A stretch of 21,730 bases of DNA from Pseudomonadota bacterium (GCA_023229365.1 JALNZK010000002.1:318343-340072); one strand, 5' to 3'; positions 601 to 21,730 are shown, numbered from the stretch's first letter. Made by a program: numbers and translations. The notes: generated by a model not told the origin, from the sequence alone.

Positions 601-1104
601 ATGCGAACATTTACAGATTATGTCGAACAACAAAAATTAGATGCAATGTTTGAAAATGCCTTTAGACAACTTGCCATAGAAGCCGAACACAACTCACAAT
701 TAAACGATCTTTTGCTCGAACAAGGTTGGGGTGGTATGATACGAAATGCCGGGCAGGCTTTAAAACAATTTGGACAAACAGCATGGAGTGGACTTAAGGC
801 AGGAGCACAAGGTGCCTACAGTCAAATGACAGGACCATTGACACAATACCAGAATGCAATTGGTGCTCTTCAAAAAGCTTGGCAACAAATATCAAAAGAC
901 CCAAATTGGAGCAAATCAATGACTACTGGCGGCGGCGGCTTGCCAGCAATGAATTTGTCAACATGGCTACAGCAAACAATTGCAGAATTACAAAGTCAGT
1001 TAACACAGGTGCAGAACAAACAAGTGAATCCAGCCACTACTCAAACAAATGTGGCGGCAACAACAGCACAAGTAGGTCAAAATCAAAAGAATTTTGGTCC
1101 CTAA
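601..1104 (+). CDS. hypothetical Gln-rich protein (167 aa)
   Basis: GGAG RBS 8 nt upstream. Q/A/T-rich C-terminal half with a GGGG linker. The overlapping +ORF 879-1127 is an alternate-frame artefact. Confidence 0.5.
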   Translation: MRTFTDYVEQQKLDAMFENAFRQLAIEAEHNSQLNDLLLEQGWGGMIRNAGQALKQFGQTAWSGLKAGAQGAYSQMTGPLTQYQNAIGALQKAWQQISKDPNWSKSMTTGGGGLPAMNLSTWLQQTIAELQSQLTQVQNKQVNPATTQTNVAATTAQVGQNQKNFGP

Positions 1105-1439
1105 ATCCACCCAGTTTTAGTGGCTAATTTAATATCCTCAGTAGTAACTCTTCTTCCAAGCACTTCACTGACACTTTCAGTGAAGTGCTTTTCTATGTCT
1201 TTTTGGACTGCTCTAAAAAACATTGGCCCCATTTGTAGAGCTTCTGCTAAACTACTCATATCAACTGACCAGTCTAAAAACTCTCCATCTATGAAAATGG
1301 CTTTTTCTATATTGCCACCCTTGCCTTTTCGCATCATGACCTCAAAGCTTTTTTTTGGAGTGCCATCGGGCAAAAGTGGAGTGGGTGTTACTGGGGGTTC
1401 TTCAAAAGGATTGATAATTTCTGCCATAATATAATACAT
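1101..1439 (-). CDS. hypothetical protein (about 108-112 aa; likely start at Met5, coordinate 1427)
   Basis: Protein-like minus-strand ORF. The antisense +ORF 1120-1434 is S/L-rich noise. Stop codons overlap convergently with the 601-1104 gene. Confidence 0.45.
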   Translation of the reverse strand: MYYIMAEIINPFEEPPVTPTPLLPDGTPKKSFEVMMRKGKGGNIEKAIFIDGEFLDWSVDMSSLAEALQMGPMFFRAVQKDIEKHFTESVSEVLGRRVTTEDIKLATKTGWI

Positions 1440-1449
1440 AAGTAATAGT

Positions 1450-1965
1450 ATGGAATTTTCTAACTGGATTTTGCAAGAATCGAGCCTGAACGACCTTTAT
1501 CAAAGTGCCGTCGAAGCATTCCCCCGCACTACAAAAAGACAACATGCCACCCAACCAATCAAAATAGTGGAACTTACTTGGGTGCCATATAGGGGTGTAA
1601 AAACCCTGTTTGTCAAAGCAATGGCTCGTAATGAAGGTCGTGTCTACAATCCCATCATTGTTTTTAAGAAAGTTCATTATCTGGAATCTGGTGGTATTGC
1701 TCTAAAAGACAAAAATGGACAACGATACTTTGTAGAACAACTATCATTACAAAATAATGATGTTTTGGTCAGATGCCAGTGTGGTGATTTTTATTGGCGA
1801 GGAACACATTTTAATAAATTGGATCATTCGTTATATGGACCCGATAGGAAAAAATACGAAGCCAAACATAATCCTGGTTCTGCAAATCCTACTGAATCCC
1901 CTATTGTGTGTAAGCATTTGATGAAGATGATGGAAGTTTTACACAACTCAGGATTTGCTAAATAA
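1450..1965 (+). CDS. hypothetical protein with a SWIM-type zinc-finger-like C-x-C-x(n)-C-x-H motif (171 aa)
   Basis: Motif 'CQCGDFYWRG...(about 44 aa)...CKHL' near the C-terminus. The antisense ORF 1402-1677 is rejected. Confidence 0.5.
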   Translation: MEFSNWILQESSLNDLYQSAVEAFPRTTKRQHATQPIKIVELTWVPYRGVKTLFVKAMARNEGRVYNPIIVFKKVHYLESGGIALKDKNGQRYFVEQLSLQNNDVLVRCQCGDFYWRGTHFNKLDHSLYGPDRKKYEAKHNPGSANPTESPIVCKHLMKMMEVLHNSGFAK

Positions 1966-2143
1966 TTTTCGAGCCCTTGCTCATATTTGCTTTCTTTTCA
2001 AGCGGTTGCAAATTATCTAATTTCCAACACTCCAAAAATAATGGATCATTCATTGAGGTGTATGGAAAGTTGCTATGAGGCATTATATAGCAATTAAAAC
2101 AAGATTTTTTATGTAGATTTAATTATTATTTTGTTAACAAAAA

Positions 2144-2176
2144 AGCCAATGAGCCCCATAAAGGAACTCATTGGCT
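2144..2176. terminator. bidirectional rho-independent terminator between convergent genes
   Basis: aaaaAGCCAATGAG-ccccataaaggaa-CTCATTGGCTctt: a 10-bp stem flanked by an A-run on one side and T-rich sequence on the other. It lies between the end of the 1450-1965 (+) gene and the end of the 2203-2577 (-) gene. Confidence 0.6.
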
Positions 2177-2202
2177 CTTGAAAGGTTGTTACCTATTATT
2201 TG

Positions 2203-2577
2203 TTATACAGTGTGATGTAAATCTAATCCCCAACCTGTATTCACGACTATCCACTCAACCACATCACCCGGTGTCTCGGCATAGACAACGAATGAAGTAA
2301 AGTGACTAGACGTATCACTCTTGGTGGTCAGACTAGCATTATGTGTAGCAGCCCCTGCACCCCTTGCAGTTAATATAACTGCATAACTAGCAGCAGCCAA
2401 TGGTAGAGCGTCTGGAAAAGTCACTGTAGCTAAACCAGTTCCACCATCAGTTGTTACTATACCAGCAGCTACGATGTGCGGGCTATTTTGCGGAACATTA
2501 AAATTACGATTATTACCTGGACCTTTTAAATTGGAGGCAACGCCTTGTCCAACACCTGTTACACTTGCAGCACCCAT
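2203..2577 (-). CDS. small Gly/Ala-rich protein, paralog 1 of a tandem pair (124 aa); possible abundant or structural protein
   Basis: About 55-60% identical to the adjacent 2621-2989 product (MGA(A/S)SVTGVGQGVA-NLKGPGNNR-F-VPQ...THNAS..TK.DTSS.F..F..Y.E...D...W.V..TGWG.DLHHTV). Own RBS (AGGAAAAAAT ATG). Confidence 0.65.
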   Translation of the reverse strand: MGAASVTGVGQGVASNLKGPGNNRNFNVPQNSPHIVAAGIVTTDGGTGLATVTFPDALPLAAASYAVILTARGAGAATHNASLTTKSDTSSHFTSFVVYAETPGDVVEWIVVNTGWGLDLHHTV

Positions 2578-2620
2578 TATATTTTTTCCTTTTTGTTAGT
2601 TTGAGTAATTTATTGGCATA

Positions 2621-2989
2621 TTACACAGTGTGATGTAAATCAATGCCCCAACCTGTACGAATAACGACCCAATCGATCTCGTCAGTTGCACCCTCTGAGT
2701 AAATTGTGAAATAATCAAACTTACTAGAAGTGTCATGTTTAGTGACTACACTTGCATTGTGAGTAGCAGCCCCGGCCCCAAGAGCCGTTACTAAAACAAC
2801 ATAATTCGCAGCAGCCAAATCCAGAGCATCTGGAAAAGTAACTGTCAATGAATTAGCCGCAGCCGTTCCAACGCCAGCAGCTACAACATGCGGGCAAACC
2901 TGTGGAACACAAAAACTACGATTATTACCTGGGCCTTTTAAATTGGCGGCAACGCCTTGTCCAACACCTGTTACACTTGATGCACCCAT
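2621..2989 (-). CDS. small Gly/Ala-rich protein, paralog 2 of a tandem pair (122 aa)
   Basis: Paralog of 2203-2577. Perfect AAGGAGA RBS 7 nt before the ATG, suggesting high expression. Confidence 0.65.
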   Translation of the reverse strand: MGASSVTGVGQGVAANLKGPGNNRSFCVPQVCPHVVAAGVGTAAANSLTVTFPDALDLAAANYVVLVTALGAGAATHNASVVTKHDTSSKFDYFTIYSEGATDEIDWVVIRTGWGIDLHHTV

Positions 2990-3059
2990 TTTATTCTCCT
3001 TGTGGTTAAATACCCACGTTTTAGATACAATAGATACTCATGCCCTTTTAAATTTATGC

Positions 3060-3088
3060 CTCGTTTGGAAAAATTTTTTCCAAACGAG
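3060..3088. promoter_or_regulatory. 29-bp perfect palindrome in a divergent promoter region
   Basis: ctcgtttggaaaaa-t-tttttccaaacgag: 14-bp perfect arms around a single central T. It lies between the start of 2621-2989 (-) and the start of 3102-3635 (+). Candidate operator or regulator-binding site. Confidence 0.5.
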
Positions 3089-3101
3089 TATATAGGATAT
3101 T

Positions 3102-3635
3102 ATGGAACCAACAAAACGAGAATATCAGGTTATTTTGGGCACTATTATGGGCGGCTCATCAATCATCCGGCCTAAAAAGGGAAAGCATTGTTATTTGTCC
3201 ATGCGAGACAAAAGAGCCAATTGGCTAGAGTTCAAAGCAGATCAATTAGCTCGATACGCCTCGCCAGAGCCTTTTACGATTGAAAAAACAAATCGTTGGC
3301 ACTCTTTGGCATATCCTATTTTCGATGAATTTAGAGAAAAGTTTTATAATCACAAAAAACGTTGTGTCGATATCGAAAGCCTTACTTTCTGGGACGTGGG
3401 ATTGTCTATTTGGTTTGGAGATGTGGGCAAGTTCGAAAATGGACAAGTTATATTAAACACTCACATCTGGGGCGAAAAAGGATCAGAAACCCTGGCAAAA
3501 TATTTCGAATATTGTCAATGGCCTGCTGAAATATTTAAAGACCGCACCTATTACCGTTTACGATTGAACAGAGAGGCTTCTGTGCATTTTATGAATACGG
3601 TTAGCCCTCATTTGCCATTCCCATTGACTCAATAA
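3102..3635 (+). CDS. putative LAGLIDADG-family homing endonuclease (177 aa)
   Basis: Two LAGLIDADG-like dodecapeptides about 95 aa apart ('ILGTIMGGSSI' and 'LSIWFGDVGKF'). Size and the free-standing context fit a homing endonuclease. Assignment is from motifs only. Confidence 0.4.
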   Translation: MEPTKREYQVILGTIMGGSSIIRPKKGKHCYLSMRDKRANWLEFKADQLARYASPEPFTIEKTNRWHSLAYPIFDEFREKFYNHKKRCVDIESLTFWDVGLSIWFGDVGKFENGQVILNTHIWGEKGSETLAKYFEYCQWPAEIFKDRTYYRLRLNREASVHFMNTVSPHLPFPLTQ

Positions 3636-3671: not shown

Positions 3672-3956
3672 ATGATTAAATTTTTAAAACTAATTACCGG
3701 CGAAGACACATTGGCAGAAGTTACAGAAGAAACCGAATTGCATTATGTTTTAAAGAACCCAATGCGATTTATACCCACCGAACAGGGCATAGGTATAGCC
3801 CCCTTCGCAATGTTTGTGAAAAAGGGCTCTACAATCACAATTGATAAAGATAAGGTTATTTTTGCCGCCGATCCAGAAGATGAAATAGCCAATGTTTATA
3901 ATGAAAAATATGGCTCTGGGATCGTTGTGCCACCCTCAAGCATACAATTACCATGA
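3672..3956 (+). CDS. hypothetical protein (94 aa)
   Basis: GGAGGA RBS. ATGA overlap with the downstream NUDIX gene. Confidence 0.45.
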   Translation: MIKFLKLITGEDTLAEVTEETELHYVLKNPMRFIPTEQGIGIAPFAMFVKKGSTITIDKDKVIFAADPEDEIANVYNEKYGSGIVVPPSSIQLP

Positions 3957-4543
3957 CAATGCCACATTTAATGAATTGCCCACATTCACCTGATGGGTGG
4001 TGCCTTGATTGCGTCAGTAAACAAGGCAAGCTTTTGCTTGAAATTGACCAAGCCATACAAGACCCGGATAAATTTCTGGCGATGGTTGCTAATCGTGGCC
4101 GACCATTAATCGGCGTTTGCGTTTGCATTTGTCGTCGTGAACCATCCAGCGGCAAAGTTCTTTTGCACAAAAGAAAAGGAAAGCACGCTCCTGGCACATG
4201 GGCATTCCCTGGCGGGCATATGGAAAAATGGGAATCCTTTGAAGGAGTTGTTCGTAGAGAACTAGAAGAAGAAGCAGGGCCAGATATAGAAATTGATAAT
4301 TTGCAATTTTGGACTGTTGCCAATACTCGATTTCATGATGAAGACAAGCATTATGTTGTTCTTTTTATTATGGCTGATTGGGTATCTGGCGAGCCAAAGA
4401 TTATGGAGCCAGAAAAATGTGAATGCTGGGAATGGTTTGATTGGAATGATCTTCCTTCACCACTGATGATGGGGATACAAGATATTGTTGATCGTAAACT
4501 GAGCCCTTTTGACTATGGAGGCGAACACGAAACATTATGCTAG
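3953..4543 (+). CDS. NUDIX hydrolase with an N-terminal Cys/His-rich extension (196 aa)
   Basis: Canonical Nudix box G-x5-E-x7-R-E-U-x-E-E-x-G-U, read as 'GGHMEKWESFEGVVRRELEEEAGP'. N-terminal 'CPHSPDGWCLDC'. Confidence 0.85.
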   Translation: MTMPHLMNCPHSPDGWCLDCVSKQGKLLLEIDQAIQDPDKFLAMVANRGRPLIGVCVCICRREPSSGKVLLHKRKGKHAPGTWAFPGGHMEKWESFEGVVRRELEEEAGPDIEIDNLQFWTVANTRFHDEDKHYVVLFIMADWVSGEPKIMEPEKCECWEWFDWNDLPSPLMMGIQDIVDRKLSPFDYGGEHETLC

Positions 4544-5109
4544 AAGTAGAAGCTAAATTCATTGTGGATAGTTTTGATTTATTGGAAGCCAAATACCAAT
4601 TTGATGGCCCCGTGTTACAAAGAGATATATATTATCAGCATCCCTCTCGTGATTTTATGAAAACTGGAGAGTGGTTCCGTGTGCGAAGAATTTTTAAGGG
4701 CATTCCCTGTGCGGAAAACCTCGGGTGCGAAGAAATTCATCTGTGTCACAAAGGATCAAATCAAGGCTCATCTGATGTTAAAAGTCGCAGAGAGATAGAA
4801 TTTTCTGTGCCTATGGACATAATTGAACTTTTGCAAATCCTTGATTTTGCAGAATTGATACGAGTGGAAAAATACCGCCGATCAGCCGTGGTTACACCAA
4901 CTAACGATAGTGGCGAACCCACCTTTACCATAACATTAGATGAAGTTTTGGGATTGGGAAAATATGTAGAAATTGAAATGCTGGTTCTCAAAGAAGAATT
5001 TAAAGCAGGAGCAATTGAAGCCATTAATGACATAGCCAAAAAACTGGGACTCACCCAGCCAGAGAAACACGGATATGCTAAATTAATGCTGAAAAAAGAG
5101 AAAAAATGA
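4537..5109 (+). CDS. CYTH-domain protein (triphosphate tunnel metalloenzyme; CyaB/class IV adenylate cyclase or thiamine-triphosphatase-like) (190 aa)
   Basis: N-terminal 'MLEVEAKF' carries the CYTH E-x-E-x-K signature. Length and charged-residue pattern are typical of the fold. Overlaps the NUDIX stop. Confidence 0.55.
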   Translation: MLEVEAKFIVDSFDLLEAKYQFDGPVLQRDIYYQHPSRDFMKTGEWFRVRRIFKGIPCAENLGCEEIHLCHKGSNQGSSDVKSRREIEFSVPMDIIELLQILDFAELIRVEKYRRSAVVTPTNDSGEPTFTITLDEVLGLGKYVEIEMLVLKEEFKAGAIEAINDIAKKLGLTQPEKHGYAKLMLKKEKK

Positions 5110-6484: not shown

Positions 6485-7219
6485 TTAGCTATCGGTTTTG
6501 TGCAATGCATCGTATTCCGCCGATGTTGCTCGCAGAACGGCCCTGTTGTGAACTTCATCGGCATCACAAGAAGCAGAGGTTCTCGATTCGTAATCGGCAT
6601 AGGCTTTGCTTCCAGCCGCCGCAAAAGCCATAGCTTCCATCGTTCTTGCCGATTTGCCGCCTGTGAACTCATTCAACAGCATTAGTTTGGTATCGGCAGC
6701 TTGAGCCACATTAGCCCAGAATTTGCTTCCGCTATTCAGGCATTGCAACGGGAAAACACGGACACCCATTTCTTTGAGGGCAGCCAATTCTTGTCTCCAA
6801 TTCAGCTTGCCTTCATTCTGCGGATAATTAACATCGTGGGGATCAGCATCACCAATCATGACGAAAGCCGCCGCCACACCGGGGGTCCAACCCAAATCCC
6901 TGGCTTCGTGCAAAACCAATTCATAACATTCATCGCAATCGCCACCCGATGTGTCAGGTGCATTGCGAATAAAGTCGAAGATTTTTGCACGATCATTCGT
7001 GAGCTTTAGCACACGGATGCAGTTTTGTCCATCGCAATAATCCCCGTGAGAAATAAATGCCATTTTCAAGCCGGGAATATTTGCAAATAAACCCTCACAG
7101 GTTTCTTCCAGATGTTTGCGAACATCAGCGATACACGGTCGCATGGAACCTGTGGTGTCAAAACTTATGCCAATTTCCGTAGCGTCATCAATTCTTTCGC
7201 CAAGTGTTTGTTCCGCCAT
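6485..7219 (-). CDS. vWA (von Willebrand factor A) domain protein with a MIDAS motif (244 aa; start taken at the internal Met)
   Basis: 'ISFDTTGSM' is a D-x-T-x-S MIDAS site. Downstream Thr/Asp positions ('PDTSGGD', 'MIGDADPHD') are also present. RBS AAGAGGAAAAA precedes the ATG at 7219. The longer ORF to 7315 would overlap the E1 gene. Confidence 0.75.
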   Translation of the reverse strand: MAEQTLGERIDDATEIGISFDTTGSMRPCIADVRKHLEETCEGLFANIPGLKMAFISHGDYCDGQNCIRVLKLTNDRAKIFDFIRNAPDTSGGDCDECYELVLHEARDLGWTPGVAAAFVMIGDADPHDVNYPQNEGKLNWRQELAALKEMGVRVFPLQCLNSGSKFWANVAQAADTKLMLLNEFTGGKSARTMEAMAFAAAGSKAYADYESRTSASCDADEVHNRAVLRATSAEYDALHKTDS

Positions 7220-7232
7220 TTTTTCCTCTTTT

Positions 7233-7877
7233 CTAGTGCATTGCACTAATGTGTAAGTCACGCAGGGTAATGGACCATGATTGATGCCGTGGCGATGATG
7301 CCAAGAAGAAATCAAGGATTTCCTCTGAGGCTGCCGCTACTGTCAACATGATGATGTTACGAGCCAAGGGATAGTCGCAAACGTCGCCACCGCTGTCCTT
7401 TGGCACCTTGTAGCGATCATCCCATACAACCTCGCCATAATCTTCAAATAATCCAGTGTGCAGACATGGAATCTTCTTTGCCCGGCAATGGGTTTGAACA
7501 ATTTGCCGTGCAGCATTATTATCAAAACAATCCAACACCAATGCTGAGCCACGCAGCATTTTATCCACGGTAGCGGCGGTCAATTCCTTGTCCACGGTGT
7601 CAATTTCAACACCAATGTTGCCAAACACCTTCTGTTTGGCGGCGGCAACTTTCAAAGCTCCAACATCCCGCTCATTCCAAAACTGGGTGTTTAGATTATG
7701 AGTATCGACACGATCTTTGTCAATACCACGGAGATTGGCAAATCCTTGTCGAGAAAGATTGTCAAGCAAATTGCTACCCAGGGCTCCTACACCACAAATG
7801 GTGATTAGACCTTGCAATTTCTTGGCATAATCCTTGCCTCGGTAAATTTCTTCATGATGGAATTTATTCGTTGCCAT
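7233..7877 (-). CDS. minimal E1-like adenylyltransferase (ThiF/MoeB/HesA superfamily) (214 aa)
   Basis: Rossmann GxGxxG 'ICGVGALGSNL' and 'GIDKDRVDTHNLNTQF', corresponding to the D-x-D-x-V-x(2)-SNLNRQ motif. Also 'ALKVAAAKQKV' and 'LDCFDNNAARQIV'. Cys residues in the C-terminal part. GGAGGA RBS. Confidence 0.8.
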   Translation of the reverse strand: MATNKFHHEEIYRGKDYAKKLQGLITICGVGALGSNLLDNLSRQGFANLRGIDKDRVDTHNLNTQFWNERDVGALKVAAAKQKVFGNIGVEIDTVDKELTAATVDKMLRGSALVLDCFDNNAARQIVQTHCRAKKIPCLHTGLFEDYGEVVWDDRYKVPKDSGGDVCDYPLARNIIMLTVAAASEEILDFFLASSPRHQSWSITLRDLHISAMH

Positions 7878-14815: not shown

Positions 14816-15046
14816 TTAGCCGAAAACTGCCTCCGGTCGGAGTGTAAGGGTGTTAGTTTCACCATTACGATCAACAGCAAAAGCCCGTAGCTTCCCTTGA
14901 GGGATGCCTAGCCAATCGGCGGCAGCATTGCGGATATCGGCATCCGAGCTATTGTCGCCAATATTCAGTTCCGCCAAGGGAACGTCGTAAGACCTTCCTT
15001 CGACTCGAACGTGCAGCATGTTTTCAAGTTGGTTTTCGTTGTCCAT
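14816..15046 (-). CDS. ubiquitin-sized beta-grasp-like small protein (76 aa; ends ...TLTLRPEAVFG)
   Basis: AAGGAG RBS 9 nt upstream. The alternating strand-helix pattern 'HVRVEGRSYDVPL...DIRNAAADWLGIPQGKLRAFAV...TLTLRPE' resembles ubiquitin/ThiS ('GIPPDQQRLIF...LHLVLRLRGG'). It ends in a single Gly. Confidence 0.45.
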   Translation of the reverse strand: MDNENQLENMLHVRVEGRSYDVPLAELNIGDNSSDADIRNAAADWLGIPQGKLRAFAVDRNGETNTLTLRPEAVFG

Positions 15047-15089
15047 CGTAATTTCTCCTTATATCGTTCGTTCGTCTTTCACTTTCCCT

Positions 15090-15117
15090 ATTATACTTCA
15101 GAAATTTGAGTTGTAAA
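15090..15117 (-). promoter_or_regulatory. sigma70-like promoter P2 (minus strand), driving the Ubl-like and Ro60-like genes
   Basis: Minus-strand TTTACAACTCAAATTTCTGAAGTATAAT: -35 TTTACA, 16-nt spacer, perfect -10. Confidence 0.55.
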
Positions 15118-15153
15118 CAAGAAAAAATCCGTCCAAGTTACAAAAACTGTTTT

Positions 15154-15228
15154 TGGTAAACAATGCAGGAATTGAACCAGCATTCTTCAGTTTTCAAGAC
15201 TGACGCTCAACCATTGAGCTAATTGTTT
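15154..15228 (-). tRNA. complete cloverleaf tRNA, anticodon UGA (Ser), but with a short (5-nt) variable arm and an encoded CCA
   Basis: Minus strand AAACAAT-TA-GCTC-AATGGTT-GAGC-G-TCAGT-CTTGAAA-ACTGA-AGAAT-GCTGG-TTCAATT-CCTGC-ATTGTTT-A-CCA, 75 nt. All four stems pair (one U·U in the T stem). U33 is present. The A/U-rich acceptor stem is unusual. Confidence 0.55.
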
Positions 15229-15257
15229 GTAAGTTTTAGTGGTATGGGACGGAAAGT

Positions 15258-15313
15258 GGAGGGTGTTGGATTCGAACCAACATTTTTTCGTTTTCAGTGA
15301 AAAAAGTTACCTT
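15258..15313 (-). ncRNA. partial tRNA-like module (anticodon-like hairpin, canonical T-arm and a 7-nt acceptor-3'-like segment; no D-arm or 5' acceptor strand found)
   Basis: Minus strand ...TTTTTTC-ACTGAAAAC-GAAAAAA-T-GTTGG-TTCGAAT-CCAAC-ACCCTCC-A, immediately followed by the next A-motif. Confidence 0.3.
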
Positions 15314-15395
15314 TTGTTTGTATGTCTCTCAGGTGTGGGACAATTGCTTGTCCAAGTTTGGGAAACTGAACGTTTTTAACCCTCCAAAGTATCAG

Positions 15396-15521
15396 CGGGG
15401 AAGATGGGATTCGAACCCATAATTTTTCCTTAACAGGGAAACTTTTACCAATTGTTTGTATGTCTCTCAGGTGTGGGATGGTCGCCCATCCAAGTTTGGG
15501 AAACTGAACTTCTAACTTCCC
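15396..15521 (-). tRNA. tRNA-like gene (anticodon GUU, Asn-like) interrupted by a roughly 57-nt conserved hairpin element in the D-arm region
   Basis: Acceptor 5' strand GGGGAAG (15515-15521) pairs perfectly with CTTCCCC (15397-15403). Canonical anticodon arm TTTCC-CTGTTAA-GGAAA. T-arm ATGGG-TTCGAAT-CCCAT. Between the acceptor and the anticodon arm lies AGTTTCCCAAACTTGGATGG-GCGA-CCATCCCACACCTGAGAGACATACAAACAA, the B'-GNRA-A' element. Confidence 0.4.
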
Positions 15522-15612
15522 CATGTGCCCGGTTTATAATTCTCTGCCTGCAACCGGAAACCCGGCAGAAAAGCCTCCAGTTATTGGTTTATCCCAAGAG
15601 GCGAGTAATCAG

Positions 15613-15738
15613 ACCCGGTGGTAGGAGTCGCACCTACAATCTTTTCCTTAGGATGGAAACGCTGTTTGTACGTCTCTCAGGTTTGGGATAATTTCTTATC
15701 CGAGTTTGGGAAACTGTTTGCTGTTTAGCTTCACCGGG
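15613..15738 (-). tRNA. tRNA-like gene (anticodon CCU, Arg-like) interrupted by the same conserved hairpin element
   Basis: Acceptor CCCGGTG (15732-15738) pairs with CACCGGG (15614-15620). Anticodon arm TTTCC-ATCCTAA-GGAAA. T-arm GTAGG-TGCGACT-CCTAC (T-loop has G at position 55). Inserted AGTTTCCCAAACTCGGATAA-GAAA-TTATCCCAAACCTGAGAGACGTACAAACAGC. Confidence 0.4.
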
Positions 15739-15788
15739 ATATTCATAAGGCAAACATTTGATCGTCCAAGTCGAAGAAACTGTTTTTT

Positions 15789-15860
15789 GCAACAATGTTG
15801 GATTCGCACCAACTACCGAAACTTTATGGAAGTTTTGCTCTACTGATGAGCTAATTGTTT
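15789..15860 (-). tRNA. near-canonical cloverleaf tRNA-like gene, anticodon CAU, enclosed by a 24-bp perfect leader-trailer stem
   Basis: Minus strand AAACAAT-TA-GCTC-ATCAGTA-GAGC-A-AAACT-TCCATAA-AGTTT-CGGTA-GTTGG-TGCGAAT-CCAAC-ATTGTTG-C, 72 nt. Deviations: A1·G72, C33, G55 and a D-loop lacking GG. Flanked by the perfect inverted repeats 15744-15767 and 15879-15902. Confidence 0.45.
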
Positions 15861-15913
15861 GTAAGTTCCGTCAGTATGGGACGATCAAATGTTTGCCTTA
15901 TGTTGATTTTACC

Positions 15914-16090
15914 GACGCAAGCAAGTGTTGGCCCGTCCAAGTCGAAAAAGCTGTTTCACATAGTGACAGTTTAATAGACTGTTGCCTTTACCATTAGGCT
16001 AAAACACATTTTGGCGTGTTTGTTGGATTCGAACCAACAGATTGTTTGTAAGCTCTGTCTGTGTGGGACGAGCAAACACTTGCCTGCGTC
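15914..16090 (-). ncRNA. circularly permuted tRNA-like / Y-RNA-like unit Y2
   Basis: Minus strand order: 25-nt 5' stem strand (16090-16066), then A' motif, then T-arm GTTGG-TTCGAAT-CCAAC, then a closed acceptor-like hairpin AAACAC-GCCAAAAT-GTGTTT, then TA, then D-arm GCCT-AATGGTAA-AGGC, then anticodon-like hairpin ACAGT-CTATTAA-ACTGT, then B' motif, then the 3' stem strand (15938-15914). The terminal stem has 3 mismatches, 2 of which are G·U-compatible only in the minus-strand RNA. Confidence 0.45.
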
Positions 16091-16262
16091 AACATCATCA
16101 AGCTTCCGTCTGTCCAAGTTGAAGAAGCTGTTCAACTTTTGACAGTTCCAATTACTGGTGCCTGACCGTTAGGCTACATTCCTTGCGGAATGATGGGAGT
16201 CGAACCCACTTATTTGTTTGTAAGCTCCGTCTGTATGGGACAGACGGAAGCTTGATGATGTT
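16091..16262 (-). ncRNA. circularly permuted tRNA-like / Y-RNA-like unit Y1
   Basis: Enclosed by the perfect 25-bp inverted repeat 16238-16262 / 16091-16115. Internal order: A' motif, then T-arm GTGGG-TTCGACT-CCCAT, then closed acceptor-like hairpin CATTCC-GCAA-GGAATG (GNRA loop), then TA, then D-arm GCCT-AACGGTC-AGGC (G18G19 present), then hairpin CAGT-AATTGGA-ACTG, then B' motif. Confidence 0.45.
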
Positions 16263-16339
16263 TACAACTCAAATTGTCAAAGAACACAAAATTGGCTATC
16301 CAAGTTCATAGAGGGGAGAACATTCAAATCTCCCCCTTC

Positions 16340-16475
16340 AAGCGGGGGAGAAAGTCGTTTGTAACCTCTATAGGTTTGGGATAGCAAGGGGAGCCGTTGG
16401 AGTCGAACCAACAAAACCACAAGCCCCGTCTTTCAACACTATACGCTGAATACCGTATTGCGGTTCATTCAGTAT
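16340..16475 (-). ncRNA. first transcribed module of the array: 5' stem-loop, T-arm/acceptor minihelix and G/C-rich alternative hairpins
   Basis: Minus strand from about 16473: CTGAATGAACCG-CAATA-CGGTATTCAG hairpin. Then GGGGCTT...GTTGG-TTCGACT-CCAAC-GGCTCCC (acceptor-like pairing with G·U). Then A' motif. Then TCTCCCCC-GCTTGAA-GGGGGAGA-TTTGAATGT-TCTCCCC, two mutually exclusive hairpins sharing GGGGGAGA. Confidence 0.3.
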
Positions 16476-16480
16476 GATCT

Positions 16481-16508
16481 ATTATACGCCTTTTTTATTC
16501 CCTGTCAA
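16481..16508 (-). promoter_or_regulatory. consensus sigma70 promoter P4 (minus strand), immediately upstream of the tRNA-like array
   Basis: Minus strand TTGACA-GGGAATAAAAAAGGCG-TATAAT: perfect -35 and -10 with a 16-nt spacer. The transcript would begin with the CTGAAT...ATTCAG hairpin. Confidence 0.65.
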
Positions 16509-16542
16509 CACCAGTTTCTCAATTTTCAAAAAAATTTTTCGG

Positions 16543-16782
16543 TTATTCTTCCCGCATGGCTTTTAATGCCGCCTGGGAAATTTCAATTCCCCGAAAAAAT
16601 TCCTGCAAATGTTCGTCATTCTCGCCCAGGTTGAAGTCAGCCTCATGAAGAATTTCCCCATGAACAAAGGCGTTGTGTACGCCAGTCATAATGTACCGTG
16701 GATCGGCTTGTGCTTCAACTACAAGCATTCTAATGAAATGCTCGACTACTTCGTGGGTTTGTATTTGATCTGCTGTCATCAT
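16543..16782 (-). CDS. hypothetical acidic protein (79 aa)
   Basis: GGAGG RBS. Sits directly downstream of promoter P3 and upstream of P4 and the array. The antisense +ORF 16609-16902 is rejected. Confidence 0.5.
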   Translation of the reverse strand: MMTADQIQTHEVVEHFIRMLVVEAQADPRYIMTGVHNAFVHGEILHEADFNLGENDEHLQEFFRGIEISQAALKAMREE

Positions 16783-16796
16783 TTTCCTCCACCGCC

Positions 16797-16824
16797 ATTA
16801 TACTTCAGCTTTCTGGTTTGTAAA
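16797..16824 (-). promoter_or_regulatory. sigma70-like promoter P3 (minus strand)
   Basis: Minus strand TTTACAAACCAGAAAGCTGAAGTATAAT. Third copy of the TTTACAA-N16-TATAAT family; the conserved CTG(A/G)AG lies just before the -10. Confidence 0.5.
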
Positions 16825-16891
16825 CCCCAAAATTACCCCACAAACTGGTGGTTTTTACTGAAACTGGCAGGGCAAAGGATAGATACTCAAT

Positions 16892-19240
16892 ATGGAAATT
16901 AAAGGTGCATTTAAGGCCGAAACGATTGTTGCTGGCAATATTAATTATTCAGCAGATACTGGGGCTGCCAACGCTTATGTTGTAAGCTTGGGTTTAAATT
17001 ATTTATTTATAGGGCTGCCGGTTTCTTTCAAAGCCTCTCATGATAATACAGGTGCGTCAACTTTAAAAGTTGATAGTCTGCCTGCTGTTGCTATTAAAAA
17101 AAATGTAAGTGATGCCCTGGATATGGGCGATATCAAAACAGGACAAGTCATCACTGTTATTTATGATGGAATATATTTTCAAATAGCAAGTGCCCTTGGC
17201 TCAGGTATTAGCGGATATTCTGGCTACTCTGGAATTGGTATTAGTGGGTATAGCGGATATTCAGGTGACTCAGGCATTAGTGGGTATAGCGGATATTCAG
17301 GTGACTCAGGCATTAGTGGGTATAGCGGATATTCAGGTGACTCAGGCATCAGTGGATACTCAGGATACTCAGGATCAGGCATCAGTGGATATTCAGGATA
17401 CTCAGGATCAGGCATCAGTGGATATTCAGGATACTCAGGATCAGGCATCAGTGGATACTCAGGATACTCTGGAACCACAAATATATATTTGGGAAATCCA
17501 ACGACTGGCGATTACCTAGATGGGTTATTTCCCTGGGAACCCAATGTAACTTTGATTGCTGATGCCGAACAAGAAGTAAATGAAGTATTAGCTGCATTAG
17601 CACCCGCACCAGCACCCAATTTTTCGACATATAACAATGCCCAAACAACAGGAGCAACAGGAAAACTAAGTTTTGATGGATCATATCCCATAGGCGGTGT
17701 ATCGAACGTAGATGGCATTGGCAATTGCACATCTGTCGCTGTCGATGGTGCATTTACTTATAATGCTTTAAGCGGCATGCGAAGAGGTGTTTTTAGTTCC
17801 ACAACAACAAGTTTTACAGGACAATTGGCATCTAATATTGTTGCAGAACCGAATGGAGCATATCTTCAATATGCTTTTATTGACGGTGACACAGGAATTC
17901 TAAGTATATATGTCAATAATGATGTAACACCAAAACATACTGTTGATTTATCAATATTTAGTTCTGGAAGCTCTCTGAATGGCAATGGCACCGGGTTTAC
18001 AAGTATATCAGCAGTAACCTATGAAAAATTTCCTAATGGCAGTGATTTTACATTATTTGTTTATAGGACAGCACAATGGGTGGTCAATACCGCTGATTGC
18101 AGAGAAGGTTGGAATTGGGTGCGTATTACCCATACCGTAGGAACAGATCGCCCGCCCACCAATCTTTATTGCGATTTTATTCGTGACCTAAATACTACGA
18201 CCACGACTTTTTCTGCGGACACGCTTACAGGATTTACTGGCAGTGGATCAAAATATTTGTCGGGAGTAAATTATTATACGGGTGGATCGGCAACTTATGC
18301 CGCAACAATCAGCAATCTTTACAGAAACACATGGTATACAGGATCAGATGCTATTGCTTACAGCTTTAACAGCACCCCTTTACAAGCATTGACAAATGAA
18401 TCTTTGGGCAATTCAGGAGGGGATGAAGCACTAGATGTAACTAAATCAAAAACAGTAAACATTACTTCATCCAGCACCAGACTAAATCCCACTGCTGGAC
18501 ATACCATTAGTGTTAGAACAACTGCAAAAAGGACTGTGCAATCTACTCAATCTTCATCCTATCGATCTATCACAGATATACTTCTTGATAATTTTGTTGC
18601 CTCATCTACCGTTACTGCTGAATATTTTGACGATGAGACTTATAGATTGCCATCAAATTCAGATTTTGACAACGACGCTACAGCCGTCACTAGTTCGTGG
18701 ACATCATCTAATACCATTGCTGATGCTGGTAGTGCTGGATACAACGATGGAACACAAACATATAATGGCACACTTGTGTATCCAACAATGAATTTCTCAA
18801 CCATAGCCAATGGTCCCGCTGGAAACGTTAACTACTCCACAGGTATATCTGGTGAACGTTGCTATTATAGATTTTTTGACATGTTAACCACAGCTAGGAG
18901 CAATTTTACACTTACGGTAAATGGAGCGTCAATAACACCAATATCAAATGGAACGGCTTTTTCTACAACAAGTCAAATAAAAATAGATATTAAGCTACCT
19001 AATGATGGTGGAGAAGGCACTGGTTGGCTAGATGTAACTGCATTGTTCGCAACAGCCCATTGGTCAGACGGTGACGGATGTTTGTTATCAGGAACATTTT
19101 CTATGAATTCTGCCATGTCAATAACTGTTGGCACAAAATCTACGGGAGCCGCAAGTGTTAATGGCAAGGTATTTTTAAGAATTAGAGTTCCTAGTGGATG
19201 GATTAGAAATTTGACTAGTATTACATTGGTTGGAGCATAA
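16892..19240 (+). CDS. putative tail fibre / receptor-binding protein with a collagen-like (Gly-X-Ser)n segment (782 aa)
   Basis: N-terminal about 100-aa domain ('AETIVAGNINYSADTGAANAYVV...'). About 95 aa of GYS/GIS/GDS triplet repeats (17198-17472). Then a large Ser/Thr/Asn/Gly-rich C-terminal region typical of fibre or adhesin distal domains. 'PAPAPN' linker. Confidence 0.75.
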   Translation: MEIKGAFKAETIVAGNINYSADTGAANAYVVSLGLNYLFIGLPVSFKASHDNTGASTLKVDSLPAVAIKKNVSDALDMGDIKTGQVITVIYDGIYFQIASALGSGISGYSGYSGIGISGYSGYSGDSGISGYSGYSGDSGISGYSGYSGDSGISGYSGYSGSGISGYSGYSGSGISGYSGYSGSGISGYSGYSGTTNIYLGNPTTGDYLDGLFPWEPNVTLIADAEQEVNEVLAALAPAPAPNFSTYNNAQTTGATGKLSFDGSYPIGGVSNVDGIGNCTSVAVDGAFTYNALSGMRRGVFSSTTTSFTGQLASNIVAEPNGAYLQYAFIDGDTGILSIYVNNDVTPKHTVDLSIFSSGSSLNGNGTGFTSISAVTYEKFPNGSDFTLFVYRTAQWVVNTADCREGWNWVRITHTVGTDRPPTNLYCDFIRDLNTTTTTFSADTLTGFTGSGSKYLSGVNYYTGGSATYAATISNLYRNTWYTGSDAIAYSFNSTPLQALTNESLGNSGGDEALDVTKSKTVNITSSSTRLNPTAGHTISVRTTAKRTVQSTQSSSYRSITDILLDNFVASSTVTAEYFDDETYRLPSNSDFDNDATAVTSSWTSSNTIADAGSAGYNDGTQTYNGTLVYPTMNFSTIANGPAGNVNYSTGISGERCYYRFFDMLTTARSNFTLTVNGASITPISNGTAFSTTSQIKIDIKLPNDGGEGTGWLDVTALFATAHWSDGDGCLLSGTFSMNSAMSITVGTKSTGAASVNGKVFLRIRVPSGWIRNLTSITLVGA
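17198..17472 (+). repeat. 36-bp/33-bp tandem coding repeats encoding (G-Y-S / G-I-S / G-D-S)n
   Basis: Repeating 'SGISGYSGYSGD' (12 aa), then 'SGISGYSGYSG' (11 aa) units. The ORFs on other frames and on the antisense strand across this region (17190-17519+, 17224-17478-, 17448-17753-, 17512-17730-) are repeat artefacts. Confidence 0.85.

Positions 19241-21730: not shown

Follow-up and report, generated by a model that had tools for sequence, protein, structure and literature searches.

The 21,730-nt stretch JALNZK010000002.1:318343-340072 (hereafter the window, with coordinates counted from its first letter) ends in two abutting + strand open reading frames (ORFs), gene 1 and gene 2, each of which encodes a long run of Gly-X-Ser (GXS) triplets. 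We consider it probable that these genes, which form a conserved tandem, are adjacent virion fiber genes of a huge phage and that their GXS stalks most likely are homotrimeric collagen-like rods whose serines may be O-glycosylated. As a collagen-like phage fiber the object is of an ordinary kind, in an apparently undescribed and widespread variant. Two consecutive fiber-type genes with a Pro-free collagen-like register had been recognized in an initial annotation of the window, and the domain assignments, the tandem arrangement and the triplet counts bear this out. Gene 1 terminates at 19240 (TAA) and gene 2 begins one base on, at 19241. The features are as follows, with lengths in amino acids (aa).

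16892..19240, +, gene 1, a 782-aa fiber protein with N-terminal domain, GXS stalk and large beta-rich distal region (ORF, translation)
16892..17197, +, gene 1 N-terminal domain, 102 aa, of tail fiber type (phrog_4900, PDB 9b45)
17198..17470, +, gene 1 GXS tract, aa 103-193, 91 aa (translation)
17471..19240, +, gene 1 distal region, 589 aa, rich in beta structure and presumed to be the receptor-binding end (AlphaFold2)
19241..21730, +, gene 2, its first 830 codons, without a stop before the window edge
19241..19762, +, gene 2 N-terminal domain, 174 aa, sharing 55% identity with P0068, a stand-alone protein
19763..21160, +, gene 2 GXS tract 1, aa 175-640, 466 aa, with 20 'GS' interruptions of the Gly-Ser-Gly (G1G) type (translation, Pfam Collagen, codons)
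19770..21248, +, spurious 492-aa ORF in the +1 frame of gene 2, open through the repeat's codon make-up
19829..19885, +, 57-bp (19-codon) segment in the window, absent from contig L001, bounded by a 47-nt perfect direct repeat (assembly comparison)
20240..20350, +, 111-bp (37-codon) segment in the window, absent from L001, with 8-nt microhomology at the junction (assembly comparison)
20777, +, the only single-nucleotide polymorphism (SNP), GAC (Asp) in the window and TAC (Tyr) in L001, at a repeat X position (assembly comparison)
21161..21538, +, island A, aa 641-766, 126 aa, a small beta-rich knob between tracts (translation, AlphaFold2)
21539..21730, +, gene 2 GXS tract 2, full length 72 aa, truncated at the window edge (translation)

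All of the sequences compared here are metagenome assemblies, apart from that of the cultured phage P19250A. An identical gene-1 protein is encoded on a 340-kb contig that bears an NCBI metagenome-assembled genome name and on L001, a 228-kb ENA contig from an independent assembly, which we used for full-length gene 2. As the initial annotation had it, the gene 2 ORF runs from 19241 past 21730 without a stop; in L001 it is complete (12350-18559; 2,069 aa), and the window version would measure ~2,125 aa. Comparison of the window with GenBank phages by megablast gave no match. The neighbors of the two fiber genes in the window are non-structural genes and tRNAs.

The N-terminal domain of gene 1 matches phrog_4900, 'tail protein' (E=1e-6), and residues 240-324 of PDB 9b45, 'gp47 Tail fiber' (E=0.003, with a convincing alignment of motifs). 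These matches are weak but consistent, and they suggest that the domain is homologous to tail fiber proteins. It is followed by the GXS tract, predicted at 95 aa and in fact 91 aa long, which consists of GYS, GIS and GDS triplets with four GS doublets and one GI doublet; its score against Pfam Collagen (PF01391) is 25.6 bits, slightly under the 27.2 cut-off. The AlphaFold2 model of gene 1 is beta-rich over residues ~230-782, where the predicted local distance difference test score (pLDDT) is mostly >90. Structural relatives of this distal fold were found only in the jumbo phages CcrColossus and Atu_ph07, and tblastn of the distal domain against deposited phages gave matches only in the huge-phage genomes LR756500-508. 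A Foldseek search of the model against the PDB produced just generic Ig-like/beta-sandwich matches (TM <0.15). The gene-1 family comprises 67 relatives.

Gene 2 is larger and more elaborate. In L001 it encodes the N-terminal domain, four GXS tracts (410, 72, 98, and 141 aa), two paralogous islands, a 789-aa SGNH/GDSL region and a 145-aa C-terminal domain. In the window, tract 1 is 466 aa long, close to the ~470 aa (>450 repeat residues) announced for it, and comprises 142 triplets (GYS 84, GIS 39, GVS 11, GKS 6, GHS 1, GDS 1) in addition to its GS doublets. Its match to PF01391 is strong (E=7e-39, 131.8 bits), although the score is largely compositional. The island that follows had been described as a 120-aa unique domain at 21166-21540, with repeats resuming after it up to the window edge; both the island and the resumption stand, but it is 126 aa long and not unique, since island B, 72 aa further on and outside the window, is its paralog (25% identity, E=1e-3). 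Weak relatives of island A are present in two copies in protein P0069 and as a knob of P19250A_0023 (E=5e-4). An exhaustive HMMER search with island A yielded two marginal matches only, and a word-indexed protein search with the alignment of both islands returned no matches, not even the query protein itself. The AlphaFold2 model of island A is beta-rich and of low confidence (pLDDT 55.8), too low for a fold search.

The SGNH/GDSL hydrolase domain (PF13472; E=9e-20, 72.3 bits against a cut-off of 32.9) lies outside the window, at ~15900-16500 of L001. Blocks I (GDS, in 'GIGDSIMSG'), III (GxND, in 'GGVNDI') and V (DxxH, in 'DGVHFT') can be read in the translation, and in the PDB the region matches generic GDSL proteins only (9hi5, 4iyj; E about 1e-7). 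We expect that this esterase probably modifies a surface polysaccharide receptor. Just past gene 2, at L001 18683-18934 (+; window-equivalent ~25574-25825), there is an 83-codon ORF encoding a highly acidic, Asp-rich low-complexity peptide (ELELELELDAFDNDDNDDNDDDD...) with no family match.

Within the tracts Gly occupies every third residue over runs of up to 22 contiguous triplets in gene 2 and 15 in gene 1, compared with the at least 6-8 contiguous triplets by which collagen-like sequences are recognized. The stabilizers of non-animal triple helices are Pro in X, KGE/KGD salt bridges and (glycosylated) Thr (PMC11923368, PMC7824840); the 621 tract residues include 0 Pro, 0 Thr, 0 KGE/KGD motifs and 11 charged residues (1.8%). 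We rejected a silk-like repeat of the fibroin type (GAGAGS/GAGAGY), to which the register had also been likened, because the Gly period is 3, not 2, and bulky Tyr and Ile occupy X. Tandem Repeats Finder reported periods of 18, 33, 36, and 66 bp and longer. The regular 33-bp period that had been claimed applies to part of gene 1 and to short stretches of gene 2; gene 2 is dominated by an 18-bp period, and its GS doublets are placed irregularly, with 2 to 22 uninterrupted triplets between them.

The reading frame of the tracts is clear from synonymous codons. In frame 0, Ser is encoded by 48% AGY and 52% TCN codons and Gly by all four of its codons, and the frame runs on into the conserved N-terminal domain and, in the full-length copy, into the Pfam GDSL domain. 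Because of this codon mixture and continuity with conserved domains, frame 0 is the selected frame. The ORF called at 19770-21248 had correctly been dismissed as wrong: it is the +1 frame, which is without conserved peptide and has an amino-acid entropy of 3.14 bits, against 2.05 bits in frame 0. The further statement that the repeats leave every frame open on both strands does not hold, as only two of six frames (+0 and +1) are open and the remaining four carry 44-54 stops in tract 1. From 19763 to 21730 the +1 frame (peptide VTQALV...) is stop-free over 1.4 kb; this openness is probably a by-product of codon choice, since NTA codons never precede Gly. The phage also encodes tRNA-Ser(UGA) at 15154-15228 (-) and tRNA-Met at 15789-15860 (-), 1.7 kb upstream of the fiber genes. 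In the tracts 35% of residues are Ser, compared with 6% in other genes; UCN accounts for 52% of tract Ser codons (UCA 31%), and the tRNA-Ser(UGA), which could read these codons, may aid translation of the fibers.

The main argument that the GXS tracts are a variant of the collagen-like stalk comes from the relatives of the two genes. A homolog of the gene-2 N-terminal domain directly follows a gene-1 homolog in every one of seven additional family loci and in no fewer than 26 of the 34 IMG/VR loci. What lies downstream of that domain differs from one phage to another. In L002 and L204-206 there is nothing, and the domain is a stand-alone protein of 200-370 aa. The window, L201 and L202 have GXS tracts, L217 and L218 have GSS/GTS tracts with knobs (up to 1,104 aa), and L203 has a canonical GVT/GLQ/GVN tract that is uninterrupted over >450 aa. 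Depending on the relative, the stalk position in the gene-1 family is likewise occupied by GYS triplets, by a mixture, by canonical Gly-X-Y (P0032, P0051, and P0052) or by no tract. In P0014 and in IMG/VR proteins GYS stands in register with GAP, GQA, GPQ, and GAT triplets. The GXS tracts are therefore equivalent in position to accepted collagen-like tracts of their homologs and mix with canonical triplets in register. In another phage group the more distant members carry different terminal modules, and such other phages are the source of the evidence that modules are swapped at tract boundaries. At the same locus, L002 (5742-11626) presents a quite different repeat as fiber stalk or head: its stand-alone N-terminal domain homolog is followed by giant Cys-rich proteins with dozens of YadA-head-like 'GSHAEG..T.A.G' repeats.

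A further finding, which the initial annotation overlooked, is that the repeat type is closely linked, across genomes, to a conserved glycosyltransferase/methyltransferase module. In L001 the glycosyltransferase genes lie 1.1 kb downstream of gene 2. They comprise a gene for a protein of at least 894 aa with glycosyltransferase family 2 (GT2), FkbM-methyltransferase and again GT2 domains (this second GT2 module is referred to as GT2b), then an overlapping 154-aa ORF of GT9-like type, whose C-half matches PF01075 and which has an E of 3e-5 to RfaC. GT2b belongs to no curated family and had no match in a PDB profile search. A degenerate DNA pattern for GYSGYSGSGISGYS matched >119 viral contig stretches; the counts of loci that follow refer to the matches listed. 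Among these there are 141 ORFs in 117 loci with a tract of at least 30 aa (median 303 aa, maximum 2,207 aa). Although the loci were chosen by the repeat DNA pattern alone, 76 of 118 carry a GT2b or GT9-like homolog, the median distance between GT2b and the tract gene being 671 bp, and 70 of 74 lying within 3 kb. In all 40 of the 40 loci without a glycosyltransferase, the tract gene is cut by the locus end. A methyltransferase is also present in 71 of 119 fetched loci, and no other window gene is shared by the pattern-selected loci.

The reverse comparison agrees: a GXS gene was found in 44 of the 80 best loci (of at least 552 viral GT2b relatives), at a median distance of 1.3 kb and, with few exceptions, on the same strand; in these genes 88% of Y positions are Ser. 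Among control loci of the gene-1 family without GXS, canonical-collagen ones included, the module is present in 0 of 39 (Fisher p=2e-14). The adjacency of the transferases to their presumed substrate gene is thus conserved across genomes. Heptosyltransferases are known to modify Ser in adhesin repeats (PMC4358343), and glycosylated Thr renders (GPT)10 triple-helical (PMC11923368). Because the known stabilizers are absent and the repeat is genetically tied to this module, we infer that tract Ser is O-glycosylated; such O-glycans would stabilize and shield the rod. In its wider form the proposal is a tentative one, and we put it forward as a possibility: that GXS repeats are the dedicated substrate of a phage O-glycosylation/methylation module (GT2b, a split GT9-like enzyme and a methyltransferase), that glycosylation replaces proline and salt bridges, and that sugar-coated collagen-like fibers occur on many phages of aquatic habitats, ranging in size from 38-kb siphoviruses up to huge phages.

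The stalks would then be homotrimeric collagen-like rods with Tyr, Ile, Val or Lys in X. If triple-helical, they would span ~26 nm in gene 1, about 130 nm in a fragment with tract 1 of gene 2, and a total of ~200-220 nm over the whole of gene 2. The gene 2 fiber would consist, in order, of the N-terminal domain, four stalk segments (~720-780 aa in total) separated by the two paralogous knobs, the SGNH region and the C-terminal domain. The G1G interruptions may introduce kinks or flexibility, while the knobs may hold the three chains in register.

The tracts are also unstable in length. Upstream of the first difference the window matches L001 exactly for 12,984 bases, as it does throughout the remainder of gene 2, and the two differ in nothing but two in-frame tract indels (57 and 111 bp) and one SNP. 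In the other phage group, fiber proteins from different metagenomes that share at least 99% identity have tract indels of 6 and 45 aa as their only internal differences. The initial annotation's suggestion of slippage or unequal recombination is upheld as far as instability is concerned, the in-frame indels and the 47-nt direct repeat being the evidence. We consider recombination between the tracts of the two genes unlikely, since they are not near-identical at the DNA level, as had been stated, but share at most 17 nt of exact sequence, with 77% identity over the best 66-nt segment. The long exact matches that exist (74 nt and 85 nt) lie inside a single gene in each case, and slippage or unequal exchange would accordingly be confined to a single gene. 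A change in stalk length leaves the receptor-binding domains unchanged. Overall, the earlier description is partly supported: it was largely right, whereas several of its DNA-level statements are unsupported, as is the mechanism of recombination and host-range switching that it put forward. The contigs of three relatives (L201, L202, and L214) end inside the GXS tract of their gene-2 homolog, from which it appears that GXS repeats systematically break short-read assemblies.

Several points weigh against this overall reading. The window holds no recognizable baseplate or tail genes. Known triple-helix stabilizers are absent from the tracts, and the Persikov host-guest scale ranks Tyr in X and Ser in Y among the least favorable residues. 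Tract 1 has 20 G1G breaks in 466 aa, or about one per 23 residues, and the AlphaFold2 monomer shows no structure in the tract (pLDDT ~28), although this decides nothing about the fold because the same outcome is expected of an obligate trimer. As to the linkage, the GT9 assignment is borderline (23.2 bits against a cut-off of 22), a GXS gene is missing from five GT2b loci whose 10-kb flanks are complete, and the closest gene-2 orthologs with GSS/GTS tracts (L217 and L218) have no GT2b within 8-10 kb. Extending these two loci downstream in search of the glycosyltransferase pair gave only a weakly related 319-aa protein without a Pfam match, which we do not count as support. The linked loci may mostly represent one viral lineage (median GT2b identity 67%), and errors of short-read assembly could account for the length differences. 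Downstream of the GSS/GTS fiber genes of two other huge phages (L241, reverse complement, 818-3165; L242, 8030-10567) we also saw a conserved protein of 303-319 aa with weak similarity to the GT9-like ORF; the gene beside it, judged by a look at the sequence only, is presumably an S-adenosylhomocysteine hydrolase, which hints at S-adenosylmethionine-dependent methylation.

The linkage could be inherited synteny of one phage lineage, with glycosyltransferase and methyltransferase genes that are unrelated to the fiber and modify DNA or host surface glycans. GT2b homologs of the linked loci are mostly 65-70% identical and one cluster holds 55 of 66, the five loci without a GXS gene within 10 kb and the two orthologs without GT2b fit such a view, and papers on freshwater phages read phage glycosyltransferases as DNA protection (PMC10202952). 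We nevertheless regard this explanation as somewhat unlikely: the module recurs in otherwise unrelated phages (the huge phage, a 38.7-kb siphovirus and many IMG/VR contigs) that have no other gene in common, it lies on the same strand at a median of 0.7-1.3 kb within the late fiber operon, it is missing from all 39 canonical-collagen and tract-less fiber loci, and the methyltransferase function is supplied by non-homologous enzymes in two contexts.

Alternatively, the tracts might be flexible, disordered or elastomeric tethers, possibly mucin-like bottle-brushes when glycosylated, that space the knobs and the enzyme domain from the virion. This is a serious rival because every known triple-helix stabilizer (PMC11923368) is absent, the G1G breaks are frequent and irregular, and the AlphaFold2 model is uninformative. 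A link to glycosyltransferases would suit a mucin-like design, as would the GSS/GTS tracts of the L217 and L218 orthologs, a composition typical of O-glycosylation. We judge it improbable all the same, because a disordered linker needs no exact Gly period over hundreds of residues, a period that is here kept despite heavy synonymous change, and because canonical collagen tracts occupy the equivalent position in orthologs, with GYS in register with GPQ, GAT, and GQA.

A single-chain bundle of polyproline-II/polyglycine-II helices or a beta-solenoid, with GS doublets as turns, is very unlikely. Gly-rich tripeptide repeats are capable of forming helix bundles of this kind, the snow-flea antifreeze protein and the phage S16 gp38 adhesin being examples, and parts of the tracts do have runs of 2-5 triplets between doublets. 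Runs that vary from 2 to 22 triplets, however, misfit equal-length helices or a regular solenoid, the L217, L218, and L203 orthologs have hundreds of uninterrupted triplets, and AlphaFold2 predicts no intrachain fold; we set both structures aside on the irregular spacing of the interruptions.

That the repeat region or its length variation is a short-read assembly artifact, as the metagenomic origin of the sequences, the breaking of relatives' contigs in tracts and the confinement of the differences between the two assemblies to the tract might suggest, is highly improbable, given an ORF intact across 6.2 kb with conserved domains on both sides, codon patterns indicative of selection on the protein, a 1,202-aa protein of the same kind in a cultured, fully sequenced phage, and a direct repeat at the first indel that is shorter (47 nt) than the contig k-mer (k=141). 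On these same grounds the existence of the repeat is secure and only its exact copy number is uncertain.

Elsewhere in the window we noted a group of genes at 6485-8661 (-) encoding a weak vWA-like protein, a ThiF (E1-like) protein and a Prok-JAB deubiquitinase-like protein, which resembles ubiquitin-like conjugation modules and is unusual for a phage. Two tandem paralogous small genes of ~123 aa are located at 2203-2577 (-) and 2621-2989 (-), one of which weakly matches the Gp53-like tail-fiber C-terminal domain (E=0.002). Homing-endonuclease-type genes (LAGLIDADG and GIY-YIG) are present at 3102-3635 (+) and 9174-9893 (-), and the pair at 3953-5109 we take, by eye only, to be NUDIX-like and CYTH-like. 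The 534-aa protein at 13123-14727 at first looked TROVE/Ro60-like, a reading that Pfam did not support.

Collagen-like stalks as such are known from phage fibers, while the Pro-free Gly-(Tyr/Ile/Phe)-Ser subclass seems to be undescribed in the literature; a full-text search for 'SGYSGYSG' among 8 million texts returned no papers. This subclass occurs commonly among environmental viruses, and its sequence departs from the rules known for triple-helix stability. In practice, its tracts disrupt short-read assembly and lead to erroneous ORF calls and annotation. The nearly obligate linkage gives a concrete hypothesis of glycosylated fibers, for which the cultured phage P19250A offers a test system. 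If true, it would extend phage virion glycosylation beyond mycobacteriophages, through a virion-glycosylation system not previously described, and would represent a new solution to the collagen folding problem.

Among known systems, prophage and phage collagen-like tail fiber proteins, such as EPclA and EPclB of E. coli O157 and the side tail fibers of the lambda Stf type, are similar in that Gly-X-Y tracts are flanked or interrupted by non-collagen fiber domains, in that lengths differ in multiples of three residues, and in their modular, recombining architecture; for EPclA a trimeric triple helix has been shown experimentally (PMC3368898). EPcl tracts contain abundant Pro and charged residues and are interrupted once at most (PMC3368898), whereas the tracts described here have no Pro, Ser in Y, aromatic or beta-branched residues in X and frequent G1G breaks. 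Our proteins gave no matches to the EPcl flanking domains PfN, Pf2, or PfC, and the flanks are not homologous. The autotransporter heptosyltransferases TibC and Aah, which hyperglycosylate Ser residues of the repeat adhesins TibA and AIDA-I, provide a parallel for a GT9-related enzyme encoded beside a Ser-rich repeat protein (PMC4358343). Their substrates are 19-residue beta-helix repeats rather than Gly-X-Y, and the GT9-like ORF found here is a 154-aa C-half with a borderline Pfam score.

A close likeness is to P19250A_0023 of the Methylophilaceae phage P19250A (GenBank KX815270), a 1,202-aa protein with GYS, GFS, GIS, and GWS tracts and embedded knobs, which mixes in more canonical triplets (GEQ, GAQ, and GPE). 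P19250A is a 38.7-kb siphovirus of a freshwater methylotroph and, unlike the phage of the window, lacks the N-terminal domains of genes 1 and 2 and the SGNH domain. Its gene order is protein J, tail fiber, GXS protein, methyltransferase, GT2b, and GT9-like, the last two being homologs with 36% and 45% identity, respectively. P19250A_0023 (L243 4723-8328; KX815270 21390-24995) is annotated as 'tail length tape-measure protein', which is very likely wrong because the gene sits after those for protein J and the tail fiber.

The BclA hairs of the Bacillus exosporium and the collagen-like fibrils of giant viruses are glycosylated collagen-like filaments, with O-glycans on Thr or Ser that include methylated sugars. 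Like the GXS fibers, they have a Gly-X-Y repeat rich in hydroxy amino acids (GPT in BclA) and polymorphic in repeat number, with transferase genes nearby. BclA differs in having Pro in X, Thr in Y and a C1q-like trimerizing head, and the putative glycosylation of the GXS fibers is suggested by gene linkage. Finally, SGNH esterase tailspikes, such as gp63.1 of phage G7C, resemble gene 2 in having a GDSL/SGNH domain within a receptor-recognizing fiber, although in gene 2 the domain is placed between collagen-like stalks; by analogy, the presence of such a domain in a fiber of this type would imply deacetylation of a surface polysaccharide.

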